NCBI GenBank assembly: GCA_007376395.1
Contig: VMGE01000001.1
Coordinates: 89,635-153,634, forward strand
Length of the DNA: 64,000 nt
Reading direction: 5' to 3'
Source: Microgenomates group bacterium Gr01-1014_5
GTDB taxonomy: Bacteria; Patescibacteriota; Microgenomatia; UBA8517; UBA10165
In this document: piece after piece, positions 4,141 to 64,000 of the stretch
How the letters are laid out: each line of letters begins with the position of its first letter
Numbering within the stretch: the first letter of the stretch is position 1
Program-made: the position numbers and the translations under genes
Notes under the pieces: generated by a model
What the model was told of the DNA's origin: nothing
Database searches by the model: none
The model's input: the letters and a program-made list of their open reading frames with translations, nothing else

Positions 4141-4668
4141 ATGGCCATAGGTCCCAGTAAAGAACAAGATTCACTTTTCTATTTTGAATCAGAAGTTAGC
4201 TCAATGCCCTTTTTTTCAGTAAGAAACAGATTTCTTCAAGCCACAGATGACGCGTATCGACGAGCATGTGCGAGGAGATTAGCACAACTAGTAGAAAATG
4301 ATCGCTACGCGCGTTCTTGGCTGGAGGATTTTACTGGCGGCGCAAGAGCACTGGTAACCGATTCTGAAAGTTTGGTGCTATTACTTGCTCCATACAATAC
4401 AAATGCTTCTCGTCAAGAAATTTCCACCCTTTACAGTTTATTCGCGAGTTATACCCGAAAAGTAGATTCAAAAAAATTAATTGCTATTGCTCAAATGGGA
4501 AGTATTTTTTCAAAATGGCAAGATCACCTACTTCCCGCTCAACGTTTTGAGATTGCAGAGAGGCTAGGGAGGATAGTGCTTTTAAACCAAAAAGAGCTCT
4601 TTGATACTCCTGATATTACTGCTTCCATGCGTGAGGCAACAAGGAAGCTTATGGGTGTAGCCTACTAA
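4141..4668 (+). CDS. hypothetical protein (175 aa); one of very few plus-strand genes in the left half
   Basis: ORF only; no motif recognised. Confidence 0.4.
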   Translation: MAIGPSKEQDSLFYFESEVSSMPFFSVRNRFLQATDDAYRRACARRLAQLVENDRYARSWLEDFTGGARALVTDSESLVLLLAPYNTNASRQEISTLYSLFASYTRKVDSKKLIAIAQMGSIFSKWQDHLLPAQRFEIAERLGRIVLLNQKELFDTPDITASMREATRKLMGVAY

Positions 4669-20780: not shown

Positions 20781-21323
20781 ATGCCAGGTATTGAAGTAAA
20801 ATCCAGCCGACCAGTTCCCTTATCGCAAAAAGACCAAGTTGATTCCCAAACACACAGAGAAAAATTGTTGCTTGACTTAGACATAGAATCCGCAGGGAAC
20901 TTATTAGATCAACTGCGAGTGGTTTATGATGATATTCCACAACACGCTCTCTTAGTACGAGATGATTGGTCAAAAGTAATTTGCACAAAAGTGAGGCATG
21001 CTGAGGAAATTCTTCCTCTTGATGATTTTGCCGCTATACCGCGCCCGCGTAACGGAGAGTCTTTAAAAATACTTCTTGCCAGACTCAGAAAGAGCGTCAA
21101 GGGAAGACCGCAACATGAAATAATGATGTATCAAGTAGCCATAATTGACCGAACTTCCGCTAGAAAAGTATTCGGACTCGAGGAATTAACAGGTGTGGCC
21201 AAAACCGATTACGGATGGAAGGGTATGTTAAAAAACGGTGGAGACACAGAAGTATATATTTTATCTAAAAGGGTATCATCTCAAGGAATCGCGGAATTAA
21301 TACCTCTTCATATTGGCAAGTAA
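20781..21323 (+). CDS. hypothetical protein (180 aa)
   Basis: ORF downstream of a TTGACA-N17/18-TATTCT promoter-like region that overlaps the palindrome TTGTCAAGTGACAA. Confidence 0.4.
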   Translation: MPGIEVKSSRPVPLSQKDQVDSQTHREKLLLDLDIESAGNLLDQLRVVYDDIPQHALLVRDDWSKVICTKVRHAEEILPLDDFAAIPRPRNGESLKILLARLRKSVKGRPQHEIMMYQVAIIDRTSARKVFGLEELTGVAKTDYGWKGMLKNGGDTEVYILSKRVSSQGIAELIPLHIGK

Positions 21324-21355
21324 CTCATACCTTAGTACCGATTTCTAACGCGTGG

Positions 21356-21973
21356 TTGACAACAAATATTTTTTATCACATACTGCGATTAAGACAAGCC
21401 GTAATGGATCTAAAAGCTACCCTGAAGGCCATTAAAATAAATGAACCGACGCTAAGCACAATTCTCGGCGCATTTGTAATATTGGCAGTTGGAATTCTGG
21501 TTATTAATTACTTCCGCACTCCCGGAAAAACAGGTTCTATCACCCCTCCCGCCCAAACAACGGCAGAAGAAGCTGTTTCCCAAGCAGGAACCAAACATAC
21601 TGTTGCTTCAGGCGAACATCTTTGGAGAATTGCCCAAAAGTATTACAAATCCGGTTACAACTGGGTTGATATTGCCGAGGCTAATAATTTAACAAACCCA
21701 GACCTTTTGACAGTAGGCGCAGAACTCACTATTCCGAGTGTTCCTGGCAAGCAAAACACTGTTAACGCTCCTCCTGGGCAAACTGCTACATCTGGCGAAC
21801 CTATTCAGACCGACACTTATTCAGTAGTGCAAGGTGATGCTCTATGGAGTATTGCCGTGCGAGCCTATGGGGACGGGTATCAATGGCCAAAAATCTGGGA
21901 AGCAAACCGCGCCTCAATTCTCAATCCAAATCTTATTTACCCCGACCAAAATTTAACTCTTCCCCGCCAATAG
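21356..21973 (+). CDS. membrane-anchored protein with two LysM domains
   Basis: TM helix LSTILGAFVILAVGILVINYF followed by two LysM repeats (HTVASGEHLWRIAQKYY...TIP and YSVVQGDALWSIAVRAY...LTLP). The real start is likely the internal Met near 21404. Confidence 0.8.
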   Translation: MTTNIFYHILRLRQAVMDLKATLKAIKINEPTLSTILGAFVILAVGILVINYFRTPGKTGSITPPAQTTAEEAVSQAGTKHTVASGEHLWRIAQKYYKSGYNWVDIAEANNLTNPDLLTVGAELTIPSVPGKQNTVNAPPGQTATSGEPIQTDTYSVVQGDALWSIAVRAYGDGYQWPKIWEANRASILNPNLIYPDQNLTLPRQ

Positions 21974-21974
21974 C

Positions 21975-22103
21975 TTATCCCCCTTCGCGAAACACCGAGC
22001 GTTAGCTCGCGTATCAGAGCGAAGTCTCGTTCGCTTCGGAGGGATTCCGCTCCCTACGAAGCGTGGGGAGAAGATACCCCGACCGTTAGGTCGCGGGAGC
22101 TTC
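21975..22103. repeat. structured repeat family R1, copy 1 (~129 nt)
   Basis: Near-identical to 56894..57058. Several short hairpins with GTTA loops (cgagc-gtta-gctcg; cgacc-gtta-ggtcg) and AGCGAA...TTCGCT. Lies between the LysM stop and the pyrB stop. Confidence 0.7.
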
Positions 22104-22104
22104 A

Positions 22105-23049
22105 TTACCCGAGAAGCATTTTGAGTAAAGCCATGCGGGTATAGAGCCCGTTTTTGACTTGTTCAAAAATAACAACTCTTGGGTCGTTGGTAAATTTTTC
22201 GGGCAGCTCGCCAAAATCATCGCTTCGCGGCAAAGGATGCATAATAATACTGTCTTTAGGCAGTTTAGCCAATACTTCTTCGTCAATCGCAACCCTTGCA
22301 TGATTATTGTTTGTTGTTTTTCCTTCCATTCTTTCTTTTTGCGCCCGGGTCAAGTAAACAATGTCTATTTCTCCTGCGCAAGCTAAAATGTCCGCGTGCT
22401 GTCGGAAAACAACATTGTGCCGCCTCAGGTAATCGAGAATATCGGGTTTTATCTGAAAATCGTCCGAGGCTACAAGGTCTATAGTTATCCCTTCAAACTT
22501 CCCTAAAAGATAGGCTAGTGAATGCACGGTTCTACCGTTCCTCAAATCACCAACAAGTGCGACACGAAGTCCATCGATTTTCTCGAAATGGCGGCTAATA
22601 GTGTACAAATCAAGCAATGCCTGGGTCGGATGCTGACCAGTGCCGTCCCCCGCGTTTATTATTGGAATAGCGGAAACCGATGCGGCTTCAGTGGCTCCAC
22701 CCACTTCGTGATACCGCAAAACAACGGCGTCATAACCCAAAGCATTAACAACCCGTATTGTGTCTTTTATGCTTTCACCTTTTATTGCGCTGGAAAATTC
22801 TTTTGCATTTTCTGTCGAAGAAAACGTGGCCCCTAATTTAGTAGTCGCTTGCTCAAAGGAGATTCTTGTTCTTGTGCTCGGTTCGTAAAATAAAATACAA
22901 ACCGAACGTCCTGCCAAAAGACCATTACCTCTTGCCTCCACGACTTTTACCATGGATCTAGTTTCTGAAAAAAATTCTTCCACTAGCCAGCCCCGGCTAA
23001 ACTGCTGGGCTTCTAAAATGTGTCGTAAGCCTAGTTCTTTTGACATCAA
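22105..23049 (-). CDS. pyrB: aspartate carbamoyltransferase catalytic subunit
   Basis: STRTR carbamoyl-phosphate motif and HPLPR (ATCase type; OTCase has HCLP); 314 aa. Confidence 0.75.
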   Translation of the reverse strand: MMSKELGLRHILEAQQFSRGWLVEEFFSETRSMVKVVEARGNGLLAGRSVCILFYEPSTRTRISFEQATTKLGATFSSTENAKEFSSAIKGESIKDTIRVVNALGYDAVVLRYHEVGGATEAASVSAIPIINAGDGTGQHPTQALLDLYTISRHFEKIDGLRVALVGDLRNGRTVHSLAYLLGKFEGITIDLVASDDFQIKPDILDYLRRHNVVFRQHADILACAGEIDIVYLTRAQKERMEGKTTNNNHARVAIDEEVLAKLPKDSIIMHPLPRSDDFGELPEKFTNDPRVVIFEQVKNGLYTRMALLKMLLG

Positions 23050-23116
23050 AACTTTGTTTTGTGAAGATCTGTATTTTTATATACTCCCTTACGCTATATG
23101 TCAAGCCGCTTAATTG

Positions 23117-24310
23117 TTATTCGTACCTTAAGGCTTGAATCGGATTCATTTTTGAGGCCCTTAGAGCGGGAGCTACACCAAAAACTACACCAACCAGCAC
23201 AGAAAAACCAAAAGAGAGCGCTATAGACCACCAGGTGATTGTGGTTTGAAAGAAGATATTAACCAGCAAAGAAAAAGCGATCCCTAAAATTATTCCAATA
23301 ATTCCTCCCAAAGCAGATAGCGTCACCGCTTCGATTAAAAACTGCAGACGAATGTCTTTTGGCTTTGCGCCAAGCGCTTTTCTAAGCCCAATTTCCCGGG
23401 TTCTCTCGGTAACAGAAACTAACATAATGTTCATTATTCCAATCCCTCCAACTATAAGTGAAATTGCGGCTATTCCGCCTAAAGCCGCAGTTAACACTCC
23501 TGTGATTTGAGAAATAGTAGATAAAGTTTGTTCCTGGGTTTGTACTGTAAAATCGTCTTCTGTTAATCTTTTTTTAAGCGTCTTTACTGCTTCTGACTGG
23601 ACGCTTTTGATAAGCTCTGGTGTTTTTGCTGAAATTAAAATGTTTTGGACTCTGTCCTCGCCAAACTGCCTTTGCGCCGCGACAACCGAAATTGCGCCGA
23701 CGTTGTCTAGATCTATGCCGAAATTGGCTCCCCGCGGTTGAACAACGCCAATAACTTGATATTTTAAATTTCCGACGCTTATATACTCCCCAATCGGGTC
23801 TCTCCCTCCAAATAAATTCTTAACAACTGTTGGCCCAATAACAACTACTCTTTTTCCGGAATTCGCTTCAGAAAAAGTGAAAAAACGGCCTTTGTCTATT
23901 TTTAATGCAGAAATAATTTTAAAGTACGTTGCCTCAACTCCTGCAATTGTAACGTCTCTGTCTGTTTTATTCTGATATTTTAAAGTTGATGTTCTTTGAA
24001 TTGAAGCTGAAACTTCGGCGTCTCCCCCAAGAGCAACTCTGAGATTGTTTGCGTCTTGAAAAGTTAATCTATTAGCTTGAGACCCCCCTGGGCCGCGTCC
24101 ACCTCCAATTCTTCCCGGTATAACATACATAACATTAGCTCCAAAAGAACTTATTTGAGCTGTAATAAAACTTTTAAGACCGGAAACAAGAGCAACAAGT
24201 AAAATAACAGAGGTAACCCCAATGACGATTCCGAGAATAGTCAAGGAGGACCTTAGACGGTTCGCGATTATTGATTTAAAAGCCAATTTAAAAGTTTCAA
24301 AAATGTTCAT
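23117..24310 (-). CDS. ABC transporter permease, FtsX/MacB type
   Basis: 397 aa. N-terminal TM, large periplasmic loop and C-terminal FtsX-like four-TM bundle. Confidence 0.8.
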   Translation of the reverse strand: MNIFETFKLAFKSIIANRLRSSLTILGIVIGVTSVILLVALVSGLKSFITAQISSFGANVMYVIPGRIGGGRGPGGSQANRLTFQDANNLRVALGGDAEVSASIQRTSTLKYQNKTDRDVTIAGVEATYFKIISALKIDKGRFFTFSEANSGKRVVVIGPTVVKNLFGGRDPIGEYISVGNLKYQVIGVVQPRGANFGIDLDNVGAISVVAAQRQFGEDRVQNILISAKTPELIKSVQSEAVKTLKKRLTEDDFTVQTQEQTLSTISQITGVLTAALGGIAAISLIVGGIGIMNIMLVSVTERTREIGLRKALGAKPKDIRLQFLIEAVTLSALGGIIGIILGIAFSLLVNIFFQTTITWWSIALSFGFSVLVGVVFGVAPALRASKMNPIQALRYE

Positions 24311-25023
24311 CGTCCTACTTTCCCATCTTTTATAGTTATAACCCGGTTGGCATTTTTCGCAATACTGGCTTCATGGGTAATTAAGATAATTGTTTTCCCT
24401 TTTTTGTTTAAAGTTTTAAATAAATTAATAATATCTGCCCCTGTTTTTGAGTCTAAATTACCCGTTGGTTCATCAGCAAGTAGAATTTCAGGGTTTGTTA
24501 TTAGAGCACGTGCCACAGCAACTCTTTGTTGTTGTCCGCCGGACAATTGATTTGGTCGGGATTGAAGTTTGTCGCCTAAACCAACACTTTGTAGAATTTC
24601 AACTGCTCGAAGGTCTCTTTCTTCTTTACTAACTCCGGAATATATTAACGGTAACTGTACATTTTCCAAAGCCGAAGTTCGACCTAGCAAATTAAAGTTT
24701 TGAAAAATAAAGCCAATTTTTTTGTTTCTCAGGGAGGCTAGAGTCTCTTCTCCTAAACGGGAAACATCTTGTCCGTCGAGAGTATAAGTTCCGCTTGTCG
24801 GATTATCTAATAATCCCAATATATTCATTAAAGTTGATTTTCCGCTCCCGGAAGGCCCGACTATCCCAATAAATTCACCTTTTTTAATCTCCAGGTTTAT
24901 GTCAATAAGCGCATGGAAGGAAAGAGTGTCTGTTTTGAAGATTTTATTTACTTTGTGTAACTTAACGAGAGTTGCCACGGAAGCCCCCTCCCGAGCCTCT
25001 TTGAACACCAAAAAGCCGCCCAA
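24307..25023 (-). CDS. ABC transporter ATP-binding protein (MacB/LolD-like)
   Basis: Walker A GPSGSGKST, signature LSGGQQQRVAVARAL and Walker B ILLADEPT. The start is probably downstream of the annotated Met because of a 62-nt overlap with the adaptor gene. Confidence 0.9.
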   Translation of the reverse strand: MGGFLVFKEAREGASVATLVKLHKVNKIFKTDTLSFHALIDINLEIKKGEFIGIVGPSGSGKSTLMNILGLLDNPTSGTYTLDGQDVSRLGEETLASLRNKKIGFIFQNFNLLGRTSALENVQLPLIYSGVSKEERDLRAVEILQSVGLGDKLQSRPNQLSGGQQQRVAVARALITNPEILLADEPTGNLDSKTGADIINLFKTLNKKGKTIILITHEASIAKNANRVITIKDGKVGR

Positions 25024-26104
25024 TGATATTGCCTATTCCACCGCTTGTTCTCGAAGGCGTAATGTTTGCTGGATTTACAACAAAGAGCTCGCCCTCCTTT
25101 AGTCCTGACTTTACTTCGATGTCTGTATCCCCAACAAAACCTGTTTCGATTTTTCGCGCAACAATATTCCCGTTTGTTTGAACATAAACTTCGTTTGCTT
25201 CGCTATAAACCTCATCTTTACTAACCAGGGCGTCTTGGGAAACAGTTAATATATTTTTCGCTTCTTTAGTAATAATTTCAGCTTGACCCGTAATTCCGGG
25301 AACAAACGTCATTTCAGGATTACCTAAATTTACTCTTACAACTATTACGGTTGAACCGCTTGAAGTAGTCTTTGTAACCGGAATAATTTTATCAATTTTT
25401 CCGTTAAAAACTCTGTCTCCCGAGGAGTTTAGCGTTACTTTTACTTCTTGGTCTAATTTAACTTTGTCTATATCTGCTTCGTCAATTTCTGCGTCAAAAT
25501 AAATTGTGCTTTTATCTACAATTTGGATAATTGTGTCAGAAGAAGCAACACTTGCTCCTGTAATTGCCCCAACCTTTGTAACAATTCCGTTAATGGGAGT
25601 AGTAAGAGTCGATTCTCTTAAAGCCCTCTCGGCATCGCGTACGTTATCAAACGCATTATCTTTCGCGACTTCCGCCGTTGTTCTGGTTTGTCTCTGAGTT
25701 AATGTTTCGTCAGAACTGTGCCCTTTGACGTCATCCAGGATTTTATCCAAAATTGCCTGCTTGTCCCTTAGTGTATTTTTAGCCTGTTGAAGTGAAATTG
25801 ATAACTCCTGGGTATCAAGTCCTGCAAGAGCTCGATTTTTAGTTACATTATCTCCCTCTTTCACACTTATATATTTTAAAATTCCACTACTTTGAAAATG
25901 CAGATTTGCTGTATCTTTTCCTTGAAGCGTACCGGAAGAAGCAACGGTTTGTTTTATATCCTGAACCTTTACAATTCCTGTTTCAACCGCAACTTTTTGC
26001 GAGTTTCGTCCAAATAAAAACCAAACACCAAACAAGACGGCAATGACGAGTAGTATTTGATACCGGTGCTTTAGAGATAAGATTTTTTTAAGGGCTTTTT
26101 TCAC
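24962..26104 (-). CDS. HlyD/MacA-family periplasmic adaptor (membrane fusion protein)
   Basis: 380 aa. N-terminal TM, coiled-coil, beta-barrel/lipoyl-like regions and Gly-rich C-terminus. Forms an adaptor-ATPase-permease operon. Confidence 0.75.
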   Translation of the reverse strand: MKKALKKILSLKHRYQILLVIAVLFGVWFLFGRNSQKVAVETGIVKVQDIKQTVASSGTLQGKDTANLHFQSSGILKYISVKEGDNVTKNRALAGLDTQELSISLQQAKNTLRDKQAILDKILDDVKGHSSDETLTQRQTRTTAEVAKDNAFDNVRDAERALRESTLTTPINGIVTKVGAITGASVASSDTIIQIVDKSTIYFDAEIDEADIDKVKLDQEVKVTLNSSGDRVFNGKIDKIIPVTKTTSSGSTVIVVRVNLGNPEMTFVPGITGQAEIITKEAKNILTVSQDALVSKDEVYSEANEVYVQTNGNIVARKIETGFVGDTDIEVKSGLKEGELFVVNPANITPSRTSGGIGNIIGRLFGVQRGSGGGFRGNSR

Positions 26105-26123
26105 TAAGCTCAGATTATACCAC

Positions 26124-26153
26124 TTTGAGCCTAATTTTGCGCTGTTGTATAAT
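26124..26153 (+). promoter_or_regulatory. sigma70-like promoter for the tRNA-Gly transcript
   Basis: TTGAGC (26124-26129), 17-nt spacer, TATAAT (26148-26153). Confidence 0.55.
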
Positions 26154-26184
26154 ATAAGAAGTTTACTTCGAGTGTTAACGAGAA

Positions 26185-26227
26185 GCGGGATTAGTTGAAC
26201 GGCTCAACAGAACCGACTTTATCCCGT
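26185..26227 (+). other. tRNA-like 5' module (7-nt acceptor strand GCGGGAT plus D-arm-like GTTG-AACGGCT-CAAC) upstream of tRNA-Gly
   Basis: GCGGGAT is complementary to ATCCCGC at 26350-26356, and also locally to ATCCCGT at 26221-26227. The adjoining ATCCCGTTAA (26221-26230) pairs with TTAACGGGA (26312-26320) across the tRNA-Gly. Confidence 0.5.
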
Positions 26228-26230
26228 TAA

Positions 26231-26302
26231 GCGGTGGTAGTTCAGTGGTAGAACGTCTCCTTCCCAAGGAGAAGGTCGCCGGTTCAAATCCGGTCCACCG
26301 CT
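26231..26302 (+). tRNA. tRNA-Gly (CCC)
   Basis: GCGGTGGTAGTTCAGTGGTAGAACGTCTCCTTCCCAAGGAGAAGGTCGCCGGTTCAAATCCGGTCCACCGCT. Anticodon loop TTCCCAA, discriminator U. Confidence 0.9.
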
Positions 26303-26332
26303 CAAAGAGTCTTAACGGGACAAGGTAGAGAA

Positions 26333-26357
26333 ACGGGTTCGACTCCCGTATCCCGCT
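26333..26357 (+). other. tRNA-like 3' module: perfect T-arm (ACGGG-TTCGACT-CCCGT) plus acceptor strand ATCCCGC and discriminator T; no anticodon arm
   Basis: The sequence differs from the tRNA-Gly 3' half, so it is not an att-site duplicate of that tRNA. It pairs with the 26185 module. Confidence 0.5.
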
Positions 26358-26417
26358 CTGAGCGTTACGAAGAGAGGATATGATCCGAAGCGATTATCCC
26401 GCTCCAAATTTTTAATA

Positions 26418-26957
26418 ATGGCTGAATCTACCGACAAAGACGAACGAATAAACCCTGCGATTACCTATGCTGTAAAAGCCGGGAAAGAGATCACTCCTGA
26501 AGATATAGCTGGAATAGAAAATATGGCTGAAGAAGCAGTCACCACATTTAACACGCTTAAACACCAAGGAAAAATACCCAACAGTGTTGATTTTGGACCG
26601 ACTACACACATCTTCGCATACAAAGCGTTAAAAAACCCAAACAGCGACTTTTGTGCTGCCTTTGCCTACGATAACGGACACGTCGTCGGATATAGAATTA
26701 TCCCAATTAAAAAAGAGACTAGAGGCATCTCTAGTAGCTATCTTGGAGTAGCCATAACCCACCAACGCCGTGGAATAGCTTCAAAATTAGTTACGGAAAC
26801 TCATAAAAAGCTAGTTGAAATGGGGATACGCTCCTATGAGACCATTGCCGTTGCAGAAGTTTTAGAACTTTACAAAAAAGCAGGCGTTGAGTTTACAGTC
26901 CTTGAACCTCCCGGGTCTTACCACACTGAAGGGTATAAAATTAACGTAACCCTTTAA
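26418..26957 (+). CDS. GNAT-family N-acetyltransferase
   Basis: VAITHQRRGIASKLV is a GNAT motif A-like acetyl-CoA loop; 179 aa. Confidence 0.55.
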   Translation: MAESTDKDERINPAITYAVKAGKEITPEDIAGIENMAEEAVTTFNTLKHQGKIPNSVDFGPTTHIFAYKALKNPNSDFCAAFAYDNGHVVGYRIIPIKKETRGISSSYLGVAITHQRRGIASKLVTETHKKLVEMGIRSYETIAVAEVLELYKKAGVEFTVLEPPGSYHTEGYKINVTL

Positions 26958-27133
26958 CCCTCGAGTTGTTTTTTAAGTTCTTCGAGAGTGTGTTTTTTGG
27001 CTTCTTCTTTCGTCATTCCCCACTCTTTAGCCATTTTATCAAAATCTTCCTCGGTCAAGGACGCTCCGCCTTGAGAAAGCGTACCTTTACCCATATCGTC
27101 ATCAGGCATTCCGCAACCGCAGTTGTAACACAT
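26954..27133 (-). CDS. small Cys-rich protein (59 aa), not in the ORF track
   Basis: My translation is MCYNCGCGMPDDDMGKGTLSQGGASLTEEDFDKMAKEWGMTKEEAKKHTLEELKKQLEG. A perfect SD GAAAGGAGGTG sits 7 nt before the ATG (reverse complement of 27131-27133). It overlaps the convergent GNAT stop. Confidence 0.55.
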   Translation of the reverse strand: MCYNCGCGMPDDDMGKGTLSQGGASLTEEDFDKMAKEWGMTKEEAKKHTLEELKKQLEG

Positions 27134-27204
27134 ATAAACACCTCCTTTCAGTCAGTGAATTTCTAATTTCTAATTTTTAATTTCTAAACCTATGGTATAT
27201 TGTT

Positions 27205-27939
27205 ATGTATTCAATGCAAGAATTCAAGGTGAAATTAACGGACAAACGTCAAGAGGCTTCGGGTACAAAAACTTTTCTCTTCGAAAAGCCGAAGGACTTC
27301 GAATATATCGCAGGACAATACGCTTATTTCACCCTTCCTGAGTTAAAATTCCCGGATCCGAGAGGTAAAATCCGCCATTTTACGCTTTCTTCTTCACCTA
27401 CTGAAGATTATTTAAGTATCACAGTCAGAATGCGTAAAGAAAGCGGTTATAAAATGACGCTTGACTCGCTACCTTTGGGAGCAAAAATTGATTTCCGTGG
27501 ACCGACTGGAGACTTTGTAGTTGATGAGACAGACACAAGAACTCAGGTTATGATTGCAGGTGGTATTGGCATCACTCCTTACCGCAGTATTATAAAAGAC
27601 GTTTCCGACCGCGCCCTTCCAAACTCAATCCATCTGATTTATGCTAACTCACGGGTTGAAGAAATTACTTTTAGAGATGAATTAACTCAAATTTCTGAAT
27701 CCCATCCAAACATCAAAGTTTCCATGACTGTCTCCAATCCCGATGAAAACAAAGAACCCTGGCTCGGCCTCACCGGTCGCATAGATGAAAAGCTCCTCCA
27801 ATCTCTAACCTCTAGCCTCCAAAATCCAGTTTTCTGGCTTTGTGGTCCACCCGCAATGGTTCAGGCTTTAGAAGAAGTCCTAGAACAACTCAGGATTCCT
27901 CAAGAACGAATAAAAATAGAAAAGTTTAGTGGATATTAG
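27205..27939 (+). CDS. FNR-like FAD/NAD(P)-binding oxidoreductase (ferredoxin/flavodoxin reductase family)
   Basis: RHFTLSSSP (RxYS FAD motif) and MIAGGIGITP (GGxGxxP NAD(P) motif); 244 aa. Confidence 0.65.
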   Translation: MYSMQEFKVKLTDKRQEASGTKTFLFEKPKDFEYIAGQYAYFTLPELKFPDPRGKIRHFTLSSSPTEDYLSITVRMRKESGYKMTLDSLPLGAKIDFRGPTGDFVVDETDTRTQVMIAGGIGITPYRSIIKDVSDRALPNSIHLIYANSRVEEITFRDELTQISESHPNIKVSMTVSNPDENKEPWLGLTGRIDEKLLQSLTSSLQNPVFWLCGPPAMVQALEEVLEQLRIPQERIKIEKFSGY

Positions 27940-27996
27940 CCTCATTTGACGTATTTATCCCTTGACGTCATGTAATATTTATGATTTTCTGAGGCT

Positions 27997-28482
27997 ATGA
28001 AAGAATATTTCAGCCTCGGTACTTTCCTCAAAACCTACAAAGATGATGAAGCTTGTTTAGACCACATAAAAGAAATTAAATATCCAGCTGGTGTTTTTTG
28101 TGAGAAATGCCAAAAGATAACTAATTTTACCAAAATTAAAGATAGACCTGTTTATCAATGGTCTTGCGGATATCAGATATCTCCTCTAGCCGGAACTATC
28201 TTTGCAAAAACTACTACACCCTTACAGTTTTGGTTCTATGCAGTATTTATCATGACCCAAACTCGTTCTGGAGTTTCTGCTAAGCAATTACAAAGAGAGC
28301 TTGGTGTAACTTACAAAACATCCTGGAGAATGTTTAAACAAATAAGAATACTCATGGCAAATGCGAATAAAGGTGGGGAACCTTTAGATGGGATTGTTGA
28401 AATAGATGAAACATATATAGGAGGAAGGATAAAACGTAAAGGCGTTTGGGCTGGAGGTATAACAATAGGAAATATCAGGTAA
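27997..28482 (+). pseudogene. N-terminal fragment of an IS1595/ISXO2-like transposase (Zn-ribbon plus beginning of catalytic domain); truncated
   Basis: Cys/His-rich Zn-ribbon (CEKCQK...CGYQ) and VEIDETYIGG motif typical of IS1595-family transposases. It stops at 161 aa (full length is about 300 aa) and no DDE core follows. Confidence 0.5.
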
Positions 28483-28560
28483 GATGTTCGAGTTGTTACT
28501 GGGAGAGATAGCGAATGTTAAAGTATTAAAACAAATAAAAACAACTTAGAATTAGCGGGG

Positions 28561-29160
28561 TTATTTCTTGATGCTAATATCAGCAGGATCAAACATTACT
28601 GTAGCCGGGAAAGGCTTTTCTCCTTTATCCATTTTATCCATAAACTTAACTCCTTTGTAACCTAGTTCGTTGAGAACTTTCTCAACCTCTGGCCAAAACT
28701 GATCCAATCTTTCTGTGTTTTGGTAGGCAAACACTCTCCTGATTGCTTCAAAGTAATGTTCTGCCAACTCAGCATGGCCATTCCTTTCAAGCCAGCCTGC
28801 TAAAGCAAAATTCTGATCTCCTTTTGGAACAGCAACACCATTAAGGATGCTCATTGCATAAGTGCTAGTATCCTCATTTGTGATATCTAAAACTTTAGCC
28901 TGTGGATTAATAGTTACTTCCAGTTGAGTTTGACCTATCCCGCTTTCTTCCGGTAATAACTCTGGCGTTTCTTTTAAAAATACTCCTCTAATTGGTCCTT
29001 CAACCCCATTATTTCCTCCTGCAGTTTTTTCTCTTGCAAAGCCACCTTGTATTATAGCTTCGACATTTTCTGGGGCTGTTTGATGATAATAAGTTCGTGT
29101 TACTTCTTGCTCTGGTGCAGTTAATACAACACCCATTTCTTGGAGACCAACGTCAGCCAT
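28561..29160 (-). CDS. hypothetical protein (199 aa), third gene of the NYN operon
   Basis: No confident motif. The N-terminal YHQT...I..GGF segment is weakly reminiscent of H-Y-E-class ADP-ribosyltransferase starts; speculative. Confidence 0.4.
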   Translation of the reverse strand: MADVGLQEMGVVLTAPEQEVTRTYYHQTAPENVEAIIQGGFAREKTAGGNNGVEGPIRGVFLKETPELLPEESGIGQTQLEVTINPQAKVLDITNEDTSTYAMSILNGVAVPKGDQNFALAGWLERNGHAELAEHYFEAIRRVFAYQNTERLDQFWPEVEKVLNELGYKGVKFMDKMDKGEKPFPATVMFDPADISIKK

Positions 29161-29181
29161 GCTTTATTTATACCATAAATT

Positions 29182-29355
29182 TTAATCACTCTTTTTATCA
29201 AATGGTTCTTGTTTAGTACCTTCTTCTATTAGTTTGTTAAATACTTTCTTATTTGCTGTTTCTTTTTCTATTGTTTCGTGTAGTTTTTTGTCTTGTGGGT
29301 TTTTATTGTGACGTTTTTTTATTTCTTTTAATGTTAATGGTTTAAATCCTTTCAT
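29182..29355 (-). CDS. small Lys-rich protein (57 aa), not in the ORF track
   Basis: My translation is MKGFKPLTLKEIKKRHNKNPQDKKLHETIEKETANKKVFNKLIEEGTKQEPFDKKSD. Its start lies 4 nt after the NYN gene stop. Confidence 0.4.
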   Translation of the reverse strand: MKGFKPLTLKEIKKRHNKNPQDKKLHETIEKETANKKVFNKLIEEGTKQEPFDKKSD

Positions 29356-29358
29356 AGT

Positions 29359-29892
29359 TTATTTACCAAATTTTAGAATCTGATTTTTCTTGAGTATTAA
29401 GTATGACGAGCCGTTTTTAGAAAGAGCTCGACTGATGAAATTCTCAAATCCGACATAGACAATTTTCTTGCCTTCATCTTTAGCAGTCTGGATTGCTGGG
29501 AGAAGATCGGTGTCTGAAGAAATAAGATAACAGATGTCATATTCATTTTTAATAGCACCTCTGACAATATCTACTGCAATTTGTACATCAACGCCTTTCT
29601 CATGAAATTTTCCATCTGACATTAATAAATACCCCAATTTGATTTCGATATCCTGATTTCTTAAATGGGTGAATAGTTTTTGTTGCCCAGCATACAAAGT
29701 TTCAGACTTTTTATTCCCATCAAATTGCCTAATTTCACCGGTATAATATACTACTTTGTTTGGTTTGGCCTTGGTAATTGATTTGACTAAGCCAATATAA
29801 TCAAAGGTTGTAAGGTGGAGATTCCGATCAATCCTCTTTACCTTATTGTAGAAATTGCTTCCATCGAATTGAACGAGGATTTTCTTACTCAC
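29359..29892 (-). CDS. NYN/LabA-like (PIN-superfamily) predicted RNase
   Basis: VQFDGSNFY, KGVDVQIAVD and SSDTDLLPAI are the conserved acidic motifs of NYN domains; 177 aa. It appears to start with GTG. Confidence 0.75.
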   Translation of the reverse strand: MSKKILVQFDGSNFYNKVKRIDRNLHLTTFDYIGLVKSITKAKPNKVVYYTGEIRQFDGNKKSETLYAGQQKLFTHLRNQDIEIKLGYLLMSDGKFHEKGVDVQIAVDIVRGAIKNEYDICYLISSDTDLLPAIQTAKDEGKKIVYVGFENFISRALSKNGSSYLILKKNQILKFGK

Positions 29893-29923
29893 GCTTTTAT
29901 CTTAGGTTATCTGATAGTCTAAA

Positions 29924-29958
29924 GCAAAAAAAACCCCTAGCTCGAGTTGAACTAGGGG
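29924..29958 (-). terminator. intrinsic-terminator-like hairpin read on the minus strand
   Basis: Minus-strand read is CCCCTAG-(10-nt loop)-CTAGGGG followed by T8-10. It sits immediately upstream (in the transcription sense) of the NYN operon. Confidence 0.45.
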
Positions 29959-30085
29959 GAATTAGGGTTTAATAATACCAAAGATTATTCTAAAATGCAA
30001 GTACATGACGTGTGGTATAAGTGCCTCATTTGGTATAATAATAACGCGCCGTCCCGCTCAGCGGGACAATAGGCACGCAAAGAGT

Positions 30086-30158
30086 GCCGATGTAGCTCAG
30101 TTGGTAGAGCAGTCCCTTCGTAAGGGAAAGATCGGTGGTTCAAGTCCACTCATCGGCT
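30086..30158 (+). tRNA. tRNA-Thr (CGT)
   Basis: GCCGATGTAGCTCAGTTGGTAGAGCAGTCCCTTCGTAAGGGAAAGATCGGTGGTTCAAGTCCACTCATCGGCT. Anticodon loop TTCGTAA. Preceded by a TGGTATAAT extended -10 at 30031-30039 and two small hairpins. Confidence 0.85.
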
Positions 30159-30164
30159 CAAAAC

Positions 30165-30872
30165 ATGATATCTCGACACGCAAGAATACAAGACAAAAAA
30201 GCCACCCGCAGTGGAGTACTTTTGCTTTTTCTCTCGCTTCTTTTACTCGGAGGATTGCTAGTTTTCGGTATTCCCGCTCTGGCTAAATTCGCAGGACTCG
30301 TGGTAAACCTCCAGGGGAGCCAACCTATTGAAAGCGAGGATAAAAACACCCCTGCTCCGCCGGTTTTTTACACCACAGTTCCGAGTAGCGTAAAAGAAGA
30401 AATACTCAAACTTGAAGGCATGGCAGAAGGAGGATCTACTGTATTTGTTTATCTAAACGATGAGAAAGTTAAAGAGTTTGTGGTACCTAATAGCGGTAAT
30501 TTTGACGTTAAACTAACACTGGCCGAGGGCGAAAATCTTATCTGGGCCGTAACCCGAGATCTAGCCGAAAATAAGAGCGGGGAGTCAGGAAGAATTAAGG
30601 TTTCTTATGACAGTCAGGCTCCAATCCTTGAAATTACAGAGCCGGCAGACGCTACCGCTTTTTCAGGTAGCGAAAAATCAATCACAGTCCGCGGAATAAC
30701 AGAAAAAGGTGCCAGGGTTACAGTCAATGACCGCCTGGCTATTGTTTCTCCAGAAGGCGCGTTTTCGCAAAAGGTAACTCTTACAGAGGGCGAGAATATA
30801 ATTTTAGTTACTGTAGTCGACGAAGGAGAGAATGAAACAGAAAAAACGCTGAAGGTGATATACCAGCCTTAA
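30165..30872 (+). CDS. membrane-anchored extracytoplasmic protein with two Ig-like (Big-type) repeats
   Basis: The ORF-track start overlaps the tRNA, so the real start is ATG 30165 (MISRHARIQ...). TM anchor VLLLFLSLLLLGGLLVFGI. Internal repeats ...LAEGENLIWAVTRD... and ...LTEGENIILVTVVD... Confidence 0.5.
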   Translation: MISRHARIQDKKATRSGVLLLFLSLLLLGGLLVFGIPALAKFAGLVVNLQGSQPIESEDKNTPAPPVFYTTVPSSVKEEILKLEGMAEGGSTVFVYLNDEKVKEFVVPNSGNFDVKLTLAEGENLIWAVTRDLAENKSGESGRIKVSYDSQAPILEITEPADATAFSGSEKSITVRGITEKGARVTVNDRLAIVSPEGAFSQKVTLTEGENIILVTVVDEGENETEKTLKVIYQP

Positions 30873-32894: not shown

Positions 32895-33485
32895 ATGGAA
32901 CCAATGTCCGAAACAGAGCCAAAATCAGGAAAGCTCTCCAGCTTCCTTCTTGATATTCTCCAAACCATCGTCTTAGCTTTGGCAATTTTTATGATTGCCT
33001 ATTTATTCTTGTTCCAGCCGCACCAGGTTAAAGGCCGTTCTATGGATCCTAATTTTTCCGACGGTGAGTATTTATTAACCGATAAACTTACCTACCGTTT
33101 TGGAGAGCCCAAACGGGGAGATGTGGTTGTTTTTGAAGCCCCTGTAAACCGCCGTGAAGATTACATCAAAAGAATTATTGCCCTCCCTGGAGAAAACGTC
33201 ATGGTCAAAGACGGAAAAGTTTTGATTAACGGACGCCCTTTGGACGAAGAATATATTCCTGAAACTTTCCGTACCAATCCCGGAGTATATTTAACCGATG
33301 GCTCAACTATCACTCTCCGTCCTGATGAATATATTGTTATGGGAGACAACAGAGACCATTCCTCAGATTCGCGCAGTTGGGGACCAGTGAAAAAAAGTGA
33401 TTTCGTGGGGCGTGCCTGGGTAATCTATTGGCCGCCAAATCTATGGGGTTTAGTCAAAGGGGAAAACTACAAACCTCTAAATTAA
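32895..33485 (+). CDS. lepB: signal peptidase I
   Basis: Catalytic Ser region KGRSMDP, Lys region and GDNRDHSSDSRSWG box E; 196 aa. Confidence 0.9.
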   Translation: MEPMSETEPKSGKLSSFLLDILQTIVLALAIFMIAYLFLFQPHQVKGRSMDPNFSDGEYLLTDKLTYRFGEPKRGDVVVFEAPVNRREDYIKRIIALPGENVMVKDGKVLINGRPLDEEYIPETFRTNPGVYLTDGSTITLRPDEYIVMGDNRDHSSDSRSWGPVKKSDFVGRAWVIYWPPNLWGLVKGENYKPLN

Positions 33486-40528: not shown

Positions 40529-40864
40529 ATGGTTCGGGAAACACACTATCGAGTACCGAGATATTTGACTACTTTGGAAGAGTTGTACAGCGCGGCTCTT
40601 GCCAACCTCGGACCAATGGACACAAAGTCTCTTGAAGAATTCCAAAAAGAGGCCGCTATAGTTGCAGATCTGGCTGGAATCTCTCGTTTCAGACTAGCTC
40701 TTGATTTAAGCTTTAAAGAGCCAGATTCTTTAGGTATCACCGAACAACCCCAAACAGTCACAGACTTTGAATGGAATCAACATCTTGAGGAAGTTGGAAG
40801 AAGAACCACGCATATGCCAAACGTCTTTGTCGTTGACACAACCAAATACACCCTACTTTTTTAA
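40529..40864 (+). CDS. hypothetical protein (111 aa)
   Basis: ORF only. Confidence 0.35.
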   Translation: MVRETHYRVPRYLTTLEELYSAALANLGPMDTKSLEEFQKEAAIVADLAGISRFRLALDLSFKEPDSLGITEQPQTVTDFEWNQHLEEVGRRTTHMPNVFVVDTTKYTLLF

Positions 40865-60340: not shown

Positions 60341-61458
60341 TGGGCAATTAAATCTTTTGTTAGTTTACCAAAATCCATAAGAAATTTCTCTTTCGTAAAA
60401 CGCAGAGCGCTGGCAATACAATCTTCTCTCTTAAAATTTGCAGGGTCAAAACTCATTAAAGCCTCTTTCAGCGAATTAACAGTTCGCGAATCAAAAAAAA
60501 TTCCAGTCTTGTTCTCAATAACCGTTTCTAAAGCTCCCCCTGCATGGTAGGCGATAACAGGTTTTCCTGCGGCTTGCGCCTCTACCGCTACAATCCCGAA
60601 ATCTTCGCTTTGAGGAAAAATTAGGGCTTTTGCGCCTTGGTAATAAAATGGCAGGTCTTGTTCAGTGACTGCGCCGGTAAAATATATATTTTTCCCTGCC
60701 TTATTTTGTAATCTTTTCTGTTCACTTCCGGTACCAATAACGACCAATGGCCACTTTAATTGATTAAAGGCTTCGATAACTAAATCCGTTTTTTTATAAG
60801 GAACCAGACGTCCAACAACAAGGAAGTACCGACCCCAAGCTATACCGTTTTTCTCCAGTTTCGATTTCACTCTCCAATTAGTAATCTTTTTTGAATAGCG
60901 ATCCGTGTCTACCGGTGGGTAAATCACTTCGCTTTTTATACCGTAATACTCACGAGTCCGCCTGAATACTTCCTGGGAAATACTGATAATTTTATCAGGT
61001 CGATGTGCAGCCATTAAATCCCATGAACGCAAGTAAGAAACTATTGGACGGGAGGCAAGCCTCTTTAAACTGTTGTTGAAATACTCGCTATAACCACTCC
61101 AAAGATAGCGTGTCGGAGTTAAAAGATAACAGAGGTGGTATGTACCGGGGCCGGTAATAATTCCTTTTGCCGCCTCTGAAGTAACAGAAATTACTAATTG
61201 ATAATTAGAAAAATCAAAAGTTTCAAAGGCTATGGGCATTAAAAATGGAAACAGCTCGTGCCTCTTGGCGGCGCCAGGAATCTTTTGTAAAAACGAAGAG
61301 TAGATTTGCCTAAACACCCGGGTCCAGGGAGCAGTATTTGAATTGAAGACAGATGTGTAGAGAGGAGCCTCTGGAAATAGTTCATGGAGGGCAAGTAATA
61401 CTCTTTCTGCACCTCCCCATTTATTAACGCGATCGTAAACTAAAGCAACTTTCATCAA
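60337..61458 (-). CDS. family-4 (GT-B) glycosyltransferase
   Basis: 373 aa. C-terminal nucleotide-sugar-binding region (PQSEDFGIVAVEAQAAGKPVIA). Confidence 0.75.
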   Translation of the reverse strand: MMKVALVYDRVNKWGGAERVLLALHELFPEAPLYTSVFNSNTAPWTRVFRQIYSSFLQKIPGAAKRHELFPFLMPIAFETFDFSNYQLVISVTSEAAKGIITGPGTYHLCYLLTPTRYLWSGYSEYFNNSLKRLASRPIVSYLRSWDLMAAHRPDKIISISQEVFRRTREYYGIKSEVIYPPVDTDRYSKKITNWRVKSKLEKNGIAWGRYFLVVGRLVPYKKTDLVIEAFNQLKWPLVVIGTGSEQKRLQNKAGKNIYFTGAVTEQDLPFYYQGAKALIFPQSEDFGIVAVEAQAAGKPVIAYHAGGALETVIENKTGIFFDSRTVNSLKEALMSFDPANFKREDCIASALRFTKEKFLMDFGKLTKDLIAQ

Positions 61459-62573
61459 TTTTGTCGTAGGGAGTTGTAAACCGTCAACGTCTCCTTAGCC
61501 ATTTTTTCCCAAGAAAACTTTTTAACTCTTTCCTTCCCTTTCCTGATAAGAAGTTTGGGCAAACTCTCTCCACTAATTATTTGCCTTATCTTTGCGGCTA
61601 TGTCTATTTCACTTCTAGGGTTAAAATAAACAGCCGCGTCGCCATAAATTTCTTTTAATACCGGTATGTCTGATGCCATTACAGGTGTACCATATGCCAT
61701 CGCCTCAAGACCTGGTAAACCAAAACCTTCGGAAAGGCTAGGAAAAATATATCCTTGGGACGCTTTGTAAAGCGTAGCCAAATCTTTATCCGGAATATAC
61801 CCTACCATTTTGACTAAATTATCAGCTTTAATCTCTTTTAAGAAAGTCTCAAATCTCTTCATAAAAACATTCCGCGCTGAAACTATAACAAGTAAAGGAG
61901 AAGGTTGAACGAGTGTTTTTAAAGCACGTGCGACAATTTCAACGTTTTTGTGGGGATACAAACTACCTACATATAATATATATGGCTTTTTTATTCCATA
62001 CTTTAAGAGAGTATCTTTTTTAAAATTTATATTCAATTTTTGGAGGGTTGCGCCCTCGTAGGTCACAACCACTTTACCTGGTTGAAGTGAAAACCTATGT
62101 ATTAAATCCTTTTTAATCGTATTGGAAGGAACTATTATTTTAACAGCCCTCGAGACAGTTTTTTTAACCACAGAGCGATAAGCGATGTATTTAAAATAGT
62201 AAGCAGGTGCGGATAAAGTAGTAACACCCAAACCTTTAATTTCGTGCCACGTAAGGTCGTGTATAGTAGTTACGAATTTTCCTTTATATAAAACAGGGAC
62301 GTTAAAATGCGGCGCATGTAAAAGATCAAGGTTTTCGCGTGCTAGAATCCTTGGCAATTTTAATTGTTCTGCAAACGTATAGTGTTTTATATCAGCCAAC
62401 ACTTTCCTAAAATTTCTTCCCGAGGGTATATTGGCAAAATCAGTTGTTCTGCAAAAAAGCACGTAATCATTCTTTTTGTCTAGTTTTTGTAAATTTTGGA
62501 CTAACTCTTGGGTATAGCGACCAATTCCTCCATGTCTTACTCCCCAAATACGGCAATCAATACCGATTCTCAT
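61455..62573 (-). CDS. family-4 (GT-B) glycosyltransferase
   Basis: EGFGLPGLEAMAYGTPVMASD (E-x7-E motif); 372 aa. Confidence 0.8.
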   Translation of the reverse strand: MRIGIDCRIWGVRHGGIGRYTQELVQNLQKLDKKNDYVLFCRTTDFANIPSGRNFRKVLADIKHYTFAEQLKLPRILARENLDLLHAPHFNVPVLYKGKFVTTIHDLTWHEIKGLGVTTLSAPAYYFKYIAYRSVVKKTVSRAVKIIVPSNTIKKDLIHRFSLQPGKVVVTYEGATLQKLNINFKKDTLLKYGIKKPYILYVGSLYPHKNVEIVARALKTLVQPSPLLVIVSARNVFMKRFETFLKEIKADNLVKMVGYIPDKDLATLYKASQGYIFPSLSEGFGLPGLEAMAYGTPVMASDIPVLKEIYGDAAVYFNPRSEIDIAAKIRQIISGESLPKLLIRKGKERVKKFSWEKMAKETLTVYNSLRQN

Positions 62574-62575
62574 TT

Positions 62576-63493: not shown

Positions 63494-64000
63494 TATTTAG
63501 ATGCAACTCTTTGGTAAATTTGATCTAATTTTTTTGCAATAACGTAATAAGTATAATTTTCGTTAACAAGAAGCCGGGCATTACGTGCTATTTTTTCATA
63601 AAGAACTTTATCAGTAAGTAATTTTATCGCCTTGTCTGCCATACCTTCAGGCGTATCAGCAATTAATACCGATTCGCCGTCTGTAGAGTTAATGCCCTCA
63701 ATCCCTATAGAAGTCGTTACTACGGGCAATTTAGCAGCCATTGCCCCTACAATCTTTACCCTCGCCCCGCTCGGACCATACAAGGGCGCAACCATAATTC
63801 CTGACGTGTGATATGCTCTCTTAACTCCTTCTATGTCGCTTATTTCTAAATTAACGATTTTCATATTCTTTGTTTTAAAATGACTTACCCTATCGGCATT
63901 TTGTCCCGAAATAATCAATTCGGCGTCCGGTATTTTTGCAAGTATTTTTGGAAATATTTTTCTTACTAAGATTTCTACTGCCTCTACATTTTGCAGCCAT
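63493..64000 (-). CDS. family-4 glycosyltransferase, C-terminal part; the gene continues past the right window edge
   Basis: The reading frame stays open to position 64000 (…WLQNVEAVEILVRKIFPKILAKIPDAELIISGQNADRV…PSGARVKIVGAMAAKLPVVTT…). The ORF-track 141-aa version begins at an internal TTG. Confidence 0.6.
   Translation of the reverse strand, partial: WLQNVEAVEILVRKIFPKILAKIPDAELIISGQNADRVSHFKTKNMKIVNLEISDIEGVKRAYHTSGIMVAPLYGPSGARVKIVGAMAAKLPVVTTSIGIEGINSTDGESVLIADTPEGMADKAIKLLTDKVLYEKIARNARLLVNENYTYYVIAKKLDQIYQRVASK

Follow-up and report, generated by a model that had tools for sequence, protein, structure and literature searches.

A probable relic of a passenger-carrying IS1595-family transposon between a conserved FNR-like gene and tRNA-Thr in a Microgenomates bacterium

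In a stretch of 64,000 nucleotides (nt) from Microgenomates group bacterium Gr01-1014_5 (contig VMGE01000001.1, positions 89,635 to 153,634; hereafter the window), genes for tRNA-Gly(CCC) and tRNA-Thr(CGT) enclose a segment of mixed content. From left to right, it contains a GNAT-family acetyltransferase gene, a gene for a Cys-rich protein of 59 amino acids (aa), an FNR-like reductase gene, a transposase pseudogene of the IS1595 family of insertion sequences (IS), and a minus-strand operon of three genes encoding, in order of transcription, an NYN-type RNase, a 57-aa protein, and a 199-aa protein, with spacers of 3 nt (NYN/57-aa) and 21 nt (57-aa/199-aa). All of these genes and both tRNAs had been listed in a first-pass annotation, and their presence was confirmed by tRNA calling, open reading frames (ORFs), and profile searches; the size of ~3.9 kb given there is reached (3.93 kb) only with both tRNA genes counted, the flagged span itself being 3.74 kb. 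The segment had been taken as a whole for an acquired island. Horizontally acquired DNA does exist here, and the transposase fragment was the right clue to it, but both the extent and the mechanism differ: only the right-hand 2.1 kb, at 27950-30025, is acquired, very probably as one non-autonomous relic of a passenger-carrying IS1595-family transposon (a "transporter IS") lying in a conserved backbone.

The element is bounded by terminal inverted repeats and by an 8-bp target duplication (Table 1), and its ends were set by homology to sister elements. The latter were found among stretches of relatives' or metagenome DNA that were compared with the window and are designated by "L" numbers (e.g., L020 and L119). 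The left and right repeats have a TATMCC…ACGTCATGT core in common, and eight sister elements have ends homologous to them; for the right repeat, homology extends to the right repeats of L027, L028, L029, L108, and L113. The core of the left repeat, TATCCCTTGACRTCATGT, lies ~42 nt upstream of the transposase start and is common to 25 of the 37 closest metagenome loci scanned. The target duplication of the IS1595 family is 8 bp long. In the window, its two copies match at seven of eight positions, and perfect 8-bp duplications were observed around the sister elements L027, L028, L029, L108/L110, and L113, as well as around the more distant members L033, L060, and L039 (Table 2).

Table 1. Features of the inserted element and of its surroundings (positions in the window)
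Feature	Position	Strand	Remarks
IS1595-family element	27950-30025		2,076 bp; terminal inverted repeats and 8-bp target duplication
Left copy of target duplication	27942-27949		TCATTTGA
Left terminal inverted repeat	27950-27973	+	CGTATT-TATCCCTTGACGTCATGT
Transposase pseudogene	27997-28528	+	Annotated 161-aa ORF ends at 28482
199-aa cargo protein	28561-29160	-	Very rare family; candidate ADP-ribosyltransferase-like fold
57-aa Lys-rich three-helix protein	29182-29355	-	Conserved accessory gene of the IS subgroup
NYN/LabA-like (PIN-like) RNase, 177 aa	29359-29892	-	First gene of the operon; PF01936, E 1.1e-15, 58.9 bits against a cut-off of 24.2
Intrinsic terminator	29926-29958	-	Strong; 10-bp stem and T8, in the gap between the right repeat and the start of the cargo operon
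Right terminal inverted repeat	30003-30025	-	ACATGACGTGTGGTATAAGTGCC; reverse complement GGCACTTATACCACACGTCATGT (GGCACT-TATACCACACGTCATGT)
Right copy of target duplication	30026-30033		TCATTTGG
tRNA-Thr(CGT), native	30086-30159	+	Found at the same place in L020-L023 and L119
FNR-like FAD/NAD(P)-binding oxidoreductase, 244 aa	27205-27939	+	PF00175, E 9e-21
59-aa Cys-rich protein	26954-27133	-	N-terminal MCYNCGCG; divergent from the FNR-like gene
GNAT-family acetyltransferase, 179 aa	26418-26957	+	PF00583 (27.2 bits) and PF13508 (28.3 bits), just over the cut-offs
Disrupted ancestral tRNA-Gly(CCC), 5' half	26185-26214	+	Acceptor strand, D-arm, and 5' strand of the anticodon stem
tRNA-Gly(CCC), intact	26231-26303	+	ARAGORN; Rfam tRNA model, 73.3 bits
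Disrupted tRNA-Gly, 3' half	26319-26358	+	Anticodon-loop CAA, GGTAG stem strand, T-arm, and acceptor strand

Removing the element together with one copy of the duplication reconstructs an empty site, TAGCC-TCATTTGG-TATAAT, which aligns with AAGCC-TCTGTGG-TAAAAT in L022. Indeed, in four closer relatives (L020, L021, L022, and L023; FNR 68-83% identical), the FNR-like gene is followed directly by tRNA-Thr(CGT) with no gene between, and the entire stretch from the FNR stop codon to the tRNA-Thr promoter that constitutes the element is absent. The insertion target lies 2-3 nt past the FNR stop codon, at the upstream edge of this promoter, such that the last three bases of the right duplication (TGG, 30031-30033) overlap the tRNA-Thr extended -10 box, TGGTATAAT (30031-30039). 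This box is aligned and conserved in all five genomes compared, suggesting that the tRNA-Thr promoter probably survived the insertion. tRNA-Thr itself is a neighbour of the insertion and not its target.

The same borders are reflected in base composition. The element has a guanine-plus-cytosine (GC) content of 35.4%, compared with a mean of 41.0 ± 2.1% for same-size (2,076-bp) windows, 1% of which are as low; the left part of the segment, 26304-27949, has 41.7%. A gene-by-gene comparison of GC, GC at third codon positions (GC3), and codon-usage distance, as the first-pass annotation had proposed, showed the expected deviation in the right half, but the GNAT, 59-aa, and FNR-like genes were found to be host-like, with GC and GC3 within ~1.5 standard deviations of the window's other 56 genes. 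The transposase fragment and the 57-aa and NYN genes are low in GC (z -1.7 to -5.0), and the 199-aa gene has a total GC near the window average (z -0.3) and a low GC3 (z -1.9).

The transposase fragment belongs to the IS1595 family, matching NF033547 (IS1595 transposase) with 79.9 bits against a cut-off of 75 over positions 2-78 of 215 only, and matching the zinc ribbon PF12760 with 24.8 bits, under the gathering score of 25.4 (E 2.1e-5); CxxC…CxC residues are legible in its translation. Residues 1-149, comprising the zinc ribbon and the start of the DDE domain through EIDETY, are intact. The reading frame is lost after about residue 149, where ~350 nt (about residues 150-273) are missing, and a C-terminal remnant follows at 28449-28528. 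The gene had been described as truncated; it is a fragment, and of the IS1595 type, but its 3' end is kept and the loss is internal. The closest full-length copy, in L121, is 84% identical at the nucleotide level; its positions 2052-2400 are missing in the window, with a 7-nt overlap at the junction (28444-28450). A tblastn search recovered residues 1-149, 274-283, and 285-300, and no other transposase-like sequence in the 64 kb. Scanning metagenomes with the 161-aa fragment yielded 80 loci, and the full-length relatives, of 302-308 aa, contain both PF12760 and PF12762 (in L028, PF12762 with E 8.7e-37). Thus, the window copy, having no intact, potentially active transposase, is an IS1595-family relic and not an active member. 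Two further copies of the same subgroup were seen at other genomic sites, one full length (L121, 305 aa) and one frameshifted (L122); decay of such copies seems to be frequent in the clade.

At the DNA level, the window is homologous to the sister elements L028 and L029 in three stretches, namely 27955-28435, which comprises the 5' two-fifths of the transposase gene and 42 nt upstream of it, 28451-28529, which is the 3' end of the transposase gene, and 29182-29385, which contains the 57-aa gene. No homology with these two elements was found for the cargo between the transposase and 57-aa genes. In five independent sister elements from other metagenomes, the inverted repeats enclose the 57-aa gene, which, wherever the flank is sufficient, lies just inside the right repeat, with the transposase gene at the opposite end. 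The 57-aa gene is paired with a transposase gene of the subgroup in L027 (where the latter is disrupted by an in-frame stop), L028, L029, L108-L112, and L113-L117. The cargo found along with the pair is different in each case (Table 2).

Table 2. Ends, target duplications, and cargo of related elements (right ends given as reverse complement)
Element	Left end	Right end	Target duplication	Cargo
L027	GGCAAT-TATCCCTTGACATCATGT	CGAACA-TATACCCACACTTCATGT	TCAATTGC	Essentially none
L028	GGCACT-TATCCCTTGACATCATGT	GGCACC-TATCCCAACACGTCATGT	ACGGTAGA	213-aa membrane protein
L029	CGCACT-TATCCCTTGACATCATGT	GGCAGG-TATACCCACACGTCATGT	CAGTTAGT	290-aa protein with no assigned function
L108/L110 (cargo: L108-L112, Daviesbacteria)	GGCACT-TATCCCTTGACATCATGT	GGCACC-TATACCCACACGTCATGT	CTTTTTCT	Rce1-like protease and DUF6199
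L113 (cargo: L113-L117)	GGCACT-TATCCCTTGACATCATGT	GGCAGG-TATACCCACACATCATGT	GTTAAAAC	PP2C-FHA protein
L107				Two unassigned genes; transposase is a C-terminal remnant only
L033 (more distant)			TTAATTTA	
L060 (more distant)			TTTCTTTT	HTH-M78 peptidase and DUF4411
L039 (more distant)			GCGTTCCC	NUDIX, nucleotidyltransferase, and sugar-kinase-like protein

The 57-aa family comprises at least 121 clusters with lengths of 37-75 aa (most 52-68) and has the consensus MKPLTxKEILKRHKKNPxDKxLHKxIETKEIKKxxFNKLIQESTKQxPFDKK; the only organisms named for its members are Microgenomates group bacterium and Daviesbacteria. The protein belongs to no Pfam family and has no PADLOC match, and its structure model, three helices with a mean predicted local distance difference test score (pLDDT) of 79, has no match in the PDB according to Foldseek. 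The ratio of nonsynonymous to synonymous substitution rates (dN/dS) is 0.07-0.41. The 57-aa protein presumably acts for the element and not for the host. Small Lys-rich ORFs are also present antisense to the transposase gene in the distant L033, L039, and L060, and may be spurious.

With respect to the remaining cargo, the NYN gene of the window copy sits between the right-end terminator and the 57-aa gene. Its translation holds DGSN, GVD (GVDVQ), and SDTD (SSDTD) motifs, which we take to be the acidic active site of the family. PADLOC matched the protein to HEC-09 (E 2.9e-13), a single-gene candidate and the only one obtained for the cargo. The window protein resembles the HEC-09/MARF1-like NYN defence candidates in matching both HEC-09 and PF01936 and in keeping the acidic motifs; unlike HEC-09, it is encoded in an operon with two other proteins and inside a transposon, with no defence-system neighbourhood. 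When HEC-09 was tested against phages, it protected against none of them (bioRxiv 10.1101/2024.01.29.577857). No close relative of the NYN protein was found in viral contigs, and the gene was without a close relative for dN/dS comparison.

The family of the 199-aa protein is very rare: a search of 1.84 billion representatives yielded only 13 proteins at E <= 0.001, and a word-indexed search two clusters (one other homolog); in a scan of viral contigs, the alignment for this family was too divergent for use. The protein matches no Pfam, NCBIfam, or PHROG family, and its PADLOC match is at chance level (E 0.037). The AlphaFold2 model (mean pLDDT 81) was matched best by Foldseek to the ADP-ribosyltransferase (ART) domain of PARP4 in the PDB, a weak match (E 6.7e-3, TM-score 0.39), with further weak matches to tankyrase, KptA/Tpt1, and the NatRT toxin complex; a profile search of the PDB gave nothing significant (Tpt1 at E 1.4). 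The motifs YHQT, RGxFLKE, and QxEV are kept in most homologs. Thus, the protein is like ART-fold proteins—PARP, KptA/Tpt1, and RES-type toxins such as NatT—in that its best structural matches all belong to this fold class, and unlike them in having no sequence profile match, in the weakness of the matches, and in that the candidate catalytic Glu of QxEV is not invariant, being replaced in two of the eight homologs that cover the position. Its central region (about residues 73-136) recurs three to six times in four of the 13 matches, P0129, P0132, P0133, and P0134, which are proteins of 928-1268 aa from other metagenomes.

The dN/dS of the 199-aa gene, measured against L026, is 0.13, which together with the values for the 57-aa gene indicates purifying selection on two of the three genes of the operon. 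It is possible, but only tentatively proposed here, that the cargo is a small conflict, defence, or addiction-type operon in which an RNase would act with an enzyme that may use NAD and with a small partner encoded by the element.

Taken together, these data are best explained as follows. A DDE transposase with an N-terminal zinc ribbon would have moved the whole unit, bounded by imperfect inverted repeats of ~24 bp, onto the 8-bp target TCATTTGG, which lies just past the FNR stop codon and abuts the tRNA-Thr extended -10 box, with duplication of the target. The transposase gene would afterwards have lost the ~350 nt that encode most of the catalytic domain, and for this reason the element is probably fixed in place; we infer its current immobility, with copies having been looked for in the window. 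The minus-strand operon would have stayed intact behind the terminator at the right end, which would shield it from transcription entering from outside. Hairpins occur at the equivalent position in sister elements. Palindromes also adjoin the right repeat, for example ACCACTACGCGTAGTGGT, and a further hairpin is CCTCTTATAT…ATATAAGAGG.

Several observations weigh against this explanation. One base differs between the two copies of the target duplication. The left terminus of the window copy is CGTATT instead of the GGCACT of most sister elements (an akin terminus, CGTAAT, is found in L121 and L033). No second copy of the element is present in the 64-kb window, which was the stretch covered. Furthermore, the evidence on cargo function is weak, given the TM-score of the fold match and the lack of phage protection by HEC-09. 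Finally, two observations concern the composition of the operon. The NYN gene is found in no sister element, being absent from L027-L029, L107, L108, and L113, and must therefore have entered the element in a separate, unobserved step; and L026 contains the 57-aa/199-aa pair followed by sequence other than a transposase, so that the pair can exist without an adjacent transposase gene.

These last two observations are also what would be expected if only ~27950-28530 were IS debris, with the NYN/57-aa/199-aa operon being a separate cluster, either of the host or independently acquired. Such an arrangement is improbable, however, in view of the right repeat and the second copy of the duplication at 30003-30033, which lie beyond the operon and enclose it with the debris. 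In addition, the four closer relatives lack the operon and the IS debris together, the 57-aa gene is inside the repeats of the five independent sisters, and low GC is common to the whole 2.08 kb.

The island of the first-pass annotation, in which the whole tRNA-Gly-to-tRNA-Thr segment (~3.8 kb) would have been integrated as one unit at a tRNA gene, has to be judged by the gene order in relatives. In L020 (FNR 77% identical), the order is AbiEii, 59-aa (minus strand), FNR, tRNA-Thr(CGT), Ig-like, Wzy, GT2, tRNA-Val, signal peptidase, ParB, L27, L21, FtsW, and IleRS; in L022 (83%), 59-aa, FNR, tRNA-Thr, Ig-like, and Wzy; and in L023 (78%), a YafQ-type toxin-antitoxin pair, 59-aa, FNR, tRNA-Thr, Ig-like, Wzy, and further genes. 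L021 (68%) contains LysM, tRNA-Gly(CCC), a 168-aa gene, NUDIX, FNR, tRNA-Thr, Ig-like, and Wzy, and the Woesebacteria locus L119 (56%) contains tRNA-Asp, LysM, tRNA-Gly(CCC), Rce1-like, a 103-aa gene, FNR, a 145-aa gene, tRNA-Thr(CGT), Ig-like, Wzy, and GT2. Adjacency of the two tRNAs in relatives had been suggested as a check; in both relatives that show the two, L021 and L119, they are non-adjacent, with FNR between them. The conserved gene order in distant relatives that had been named as speaking against an island is found for the frame tRNA-Gly(CCC)…FNR…tRNA-Thr(CGT), followed by the Ig-like and Wzy genes, and this frame is old and conserved. The FNR-like gene is a native backbone gene, because relatives as far as Woesebacteria keep it between tRNA-Gly and tRNA-Thr. 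The two gene slots beside it turn over, with GNAT occupying the first slot here and the IS the second.

It is true that the segment lies between two tRNA genes and holds a transposase fragment, that pseudo-tRNA fragments and a duplicated ATCCCGCTC lie just past tRNA-Gly, and that 26260, a position within tRNA-Gly, is where a Logan contig from a different sample breaks off. Nevertheless, an island of this extent is highly improbable: besides the position of FNR between the tRNAs, the closer relatives keep FNR and the 59-aa gene in synteny with tRNA-Thr, and the left 1.6 kb is host-like in composition. Use of the tRNAs as integration sites found no backing either. No integrase or recombinase domain was detected in any ORF between 26304 and 30085 by profile searches including Pfam, NCBIfam, PADLOC, and PHROG, and the check for direct, att-like repeats at the borders of the segment revealed no repeat of a tRNA 3' end bracketing it or located at its far end. 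The element does resemble tRNA-targeted tyrosine-integrase islands in its nearness to tRNA genes, its accessory or conflict-type genes, and its GC content below that of the host. Unlike these islands, it lacks both an integrase and an att repeat stemming from a tRNA 3' end, it was inserted in the promoter region of tRNA-Thr and not in the gene, and its borders are inverted repeats with an 8-bp duplication.

A general recombination hot spot, at which the content would differ through repeated deletion in relatives and not through insertion here, could account for the differences in both slots beside FNR among all relatives examined and for the turnover of the tRNA genes at both borders, but is very improbable for the element, given that inverted repeats and a target duplication mark an insertion and not a retained ancestral state, and that FNR is 68-83% identical in the four relatives lacking any gene between it and tRNA-Thr; the idea may still fit the GNAT slot.

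As a decayed transporter IS, the element represents an ordinary event of a known kind. As a category, passenger-carrying copies of this sort are credited in PMC3129680 to Siguier, Gagnevin and Chandler, whose 2009 paper also defined the IS1595 family. "Transporter IS" elements share with the window's subgroup a zinc ribbon followed by an ISXO2-like DDE transposase, short imperfect terminal repeats, an 8-bp duplication, and genes unrelated to transposition between the repeats. Unlike these, the subgroup keeps a second conserved gene, that of the 52-68-aa protein, at the end opposite the transposase, and each element seen has cargo of its own between these two genes; furthermore, its source names are only those of Microgenomates within the candidate phyla radiation (CPR), and the window copy itself is a deletion derivative. 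Cargo seen so far in the subgroup comprises the NYN RNase, the candidate ART-like protein, PP2C-FHA, the Rce1-like protease, and membrane proteins.

In L113 and L108, a hairpin module, consisting of ACATCCTCTTATATTTATATAAG…, then TTTAGCTTCAAA, and then an ACGCGT-centred palindrome, occurs downstream of the transposase stop codon, with a second copy separating the small gene from the right repeat. The module thus forms a direct repeat flanking the block of cargo plus small gene in L108 and L113 (blastn E 6e-8 and 3e-9); the window copy is without the module. Repetition of the module hints at cassette-like capture of cargo and not at random read-out transposition. The IS1595 subgroup of the window may be an undescribed CPR cargo shuttle, with a transposase and a three-helix protein of 52-68 aa at opposite ends and with conserved hairpin modules that would frame a slot exchanging unrelated cargo. 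A joint reading, in which such a shuttle exists and a separate, as yet unknown way of replacing tRNA genes lies behind the nested tRNA-Gly described below, is speculative and rather unlikely.

The exact borders and the mechanism replace a vague island between tRNAs. They also illustrate that nearness to tRNA genes can mislead, and the FNR-like gene and its small Cys-rich partner are accordingly to be annotated as core. The genomes of CPR bacteria are tiny, and few mobile elements have been recognised in them. An IS1595 family that ferries single, very diverse genes, several of conflict or signalling type, would be a concrete route of gene flux in the CPR. The element also supplies a very rare protein family (199-aa) and a conserved accessory protein (57-aa) for experiment. 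Additional interest, which is modest, lies in the conserved small gene and variable cargo slot of the subgroup, the rare 199-aa family, and the nested tRNA-Gly.

To the left of the element, the FNR-like gene was found to be syntenic with tRNA-Thr and the Ig-like and Wzy genes in L020-L023 and L119. It has 696 homologs at E <= 1e-20, and among the 120 listed, every source name is that of a Microgenomates or Patescibacteria lineage. The divergently transcribed 59-aa gene is preceded, as had been noted in the first-pass annotation, by a Shine-Dalgarno sequence, AAGGAGGTG, located 7 nt upstream of the ATG. Its product is 76-91% identical in L020, L022, and L023, where the gene is adjacent to FNR, and has a dN/dS of 0.07-0.14; the gene is native in this closer clade. 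All cases of the 59-aa/FNR pair come from this clade, where FNR is at least 77% identical, and the 59-aa protein is more conserved than its FNR-like partner. A weak match to the N-terminal prefix of HypB was obtained (NCBIfam, E 0.068), and the MCYNCGCG start presumably resembles the CxxCGC metal site at the N terminus of HypB. The GNAT gene is the sole member of its 90% cluster and has no homolog in the other loci fetched. Its slot, between tRNA-Gly and 59-aa/FNR, is occupied in relatives by AbiEii, a YafQ-type toxin pair, NUDIX, or an Rce1-like gene, and because the slot holds different genes in each relative, GNAT is probably accessory. No compositional or structural mark of acquisition was found for it (GC z +0.36), and no repeats or mobility genes around the gene.

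The intact tRNA-Gly is nested in what appears to be its own disrupted predecessor, the two halves of which are listed in Table 1. The first 24 nt of the 5' half match tRNA-Gly(CCC) of the Woesebacteria locus L119 at 22 positions, and the half is preceded by the same TATAAT-plus-leader as tRNA-Gly in L021; the 3' half matches the corresponding part of the L119 gene at 28 of 33 nt. The predecessor is interrupted within its anticodon loop, and the intact gene lies in an insert of ~107 nt (26215-26321) with 9-bp inverted repeats, TCCCGTTAA and TTAACGGGA, identified by repeat search and RNA folding. Written as a pattern, the nested layout is GCGGGATTAGTTGA…N(80-130)…GGTTCGACTCCCGTATCCCGC. ARAGORN, with introns allowed and a relaxed score, gave no tRNA call for the outer structure, and a disrupted gene is therefore preferred over an intron-containing functional tRNA. 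This arrangement could mark an unknown way of replacing tRNA genes. In viral contigs, a 24-nt piece of the inner tRNA-Gly matched only an unrelated phage tRNA-Gly(GCC).

The last 9 nt of the disrupted gene, ATCCCGCTC (26350-26358), are repeated 46 nt away at 26396-26404, and the exact sequence occurs only at these two places in the window. The duplication may be an old att-site scar. A one-mismatch copy at 30051 was discarded as an att repeat, being within chance (13 such copies found, 8.7 expected), and the 46-nt leader of tRNA-Thr was discarded as a decayed second tRNA-Thr, the match (~12 of 15 nt) being too short. Decayed copies of tRNA-Thr of the window's sequence type do occur directly after the functional tRNA-Thr(CGT) in L021 (10851-10970) and L023 (2212-2270), where the 5' end is missing and an insert of 30-72 nt lies next to the anticodon (at about position 37/38). 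The tRNA loci here turn over, and their scars are separate from the IS insertion. The Logan contig (L002, SRR8863434), from another sample, is identical to the window over 22076-26260 and ends in the middle of tRNA-Gly; this break could reflect strain variation or a repeat at 26260.

Upstream of tRNA-Gly, genes for ornithine carbamoyltransferase and MacB/ABC-ATPase/HlyD-type efflux proteins (22105-26104) separate LysM from tRNA-Gly in the window. LysM and tRNA-Gly are direct neighbours in L021 and L119, which makes this 4-kb block a further insertion or rearrangement specific to the lineage. Scanning genome representatives with the HlyD protein encoded next to the segment was of little use, giving one informative match, a Daviesbacteria locus with 45% identity, no tRNAs, and no synteny. 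As for the rest of the window, the flagged segment had been thought to be its only part with alternating strands, an impression that does not hold, plus-strand genes being present also at 4141-4668, 20781-21973, 30135-30872, 32895-33485, and 40529-40864. The sole other stretch with GC as low as that of the IS element (34-35% in 2-kb windows) is 61300-64000, within which a 305-aa gene at 62576-63493 has a GC content of 32.9%.

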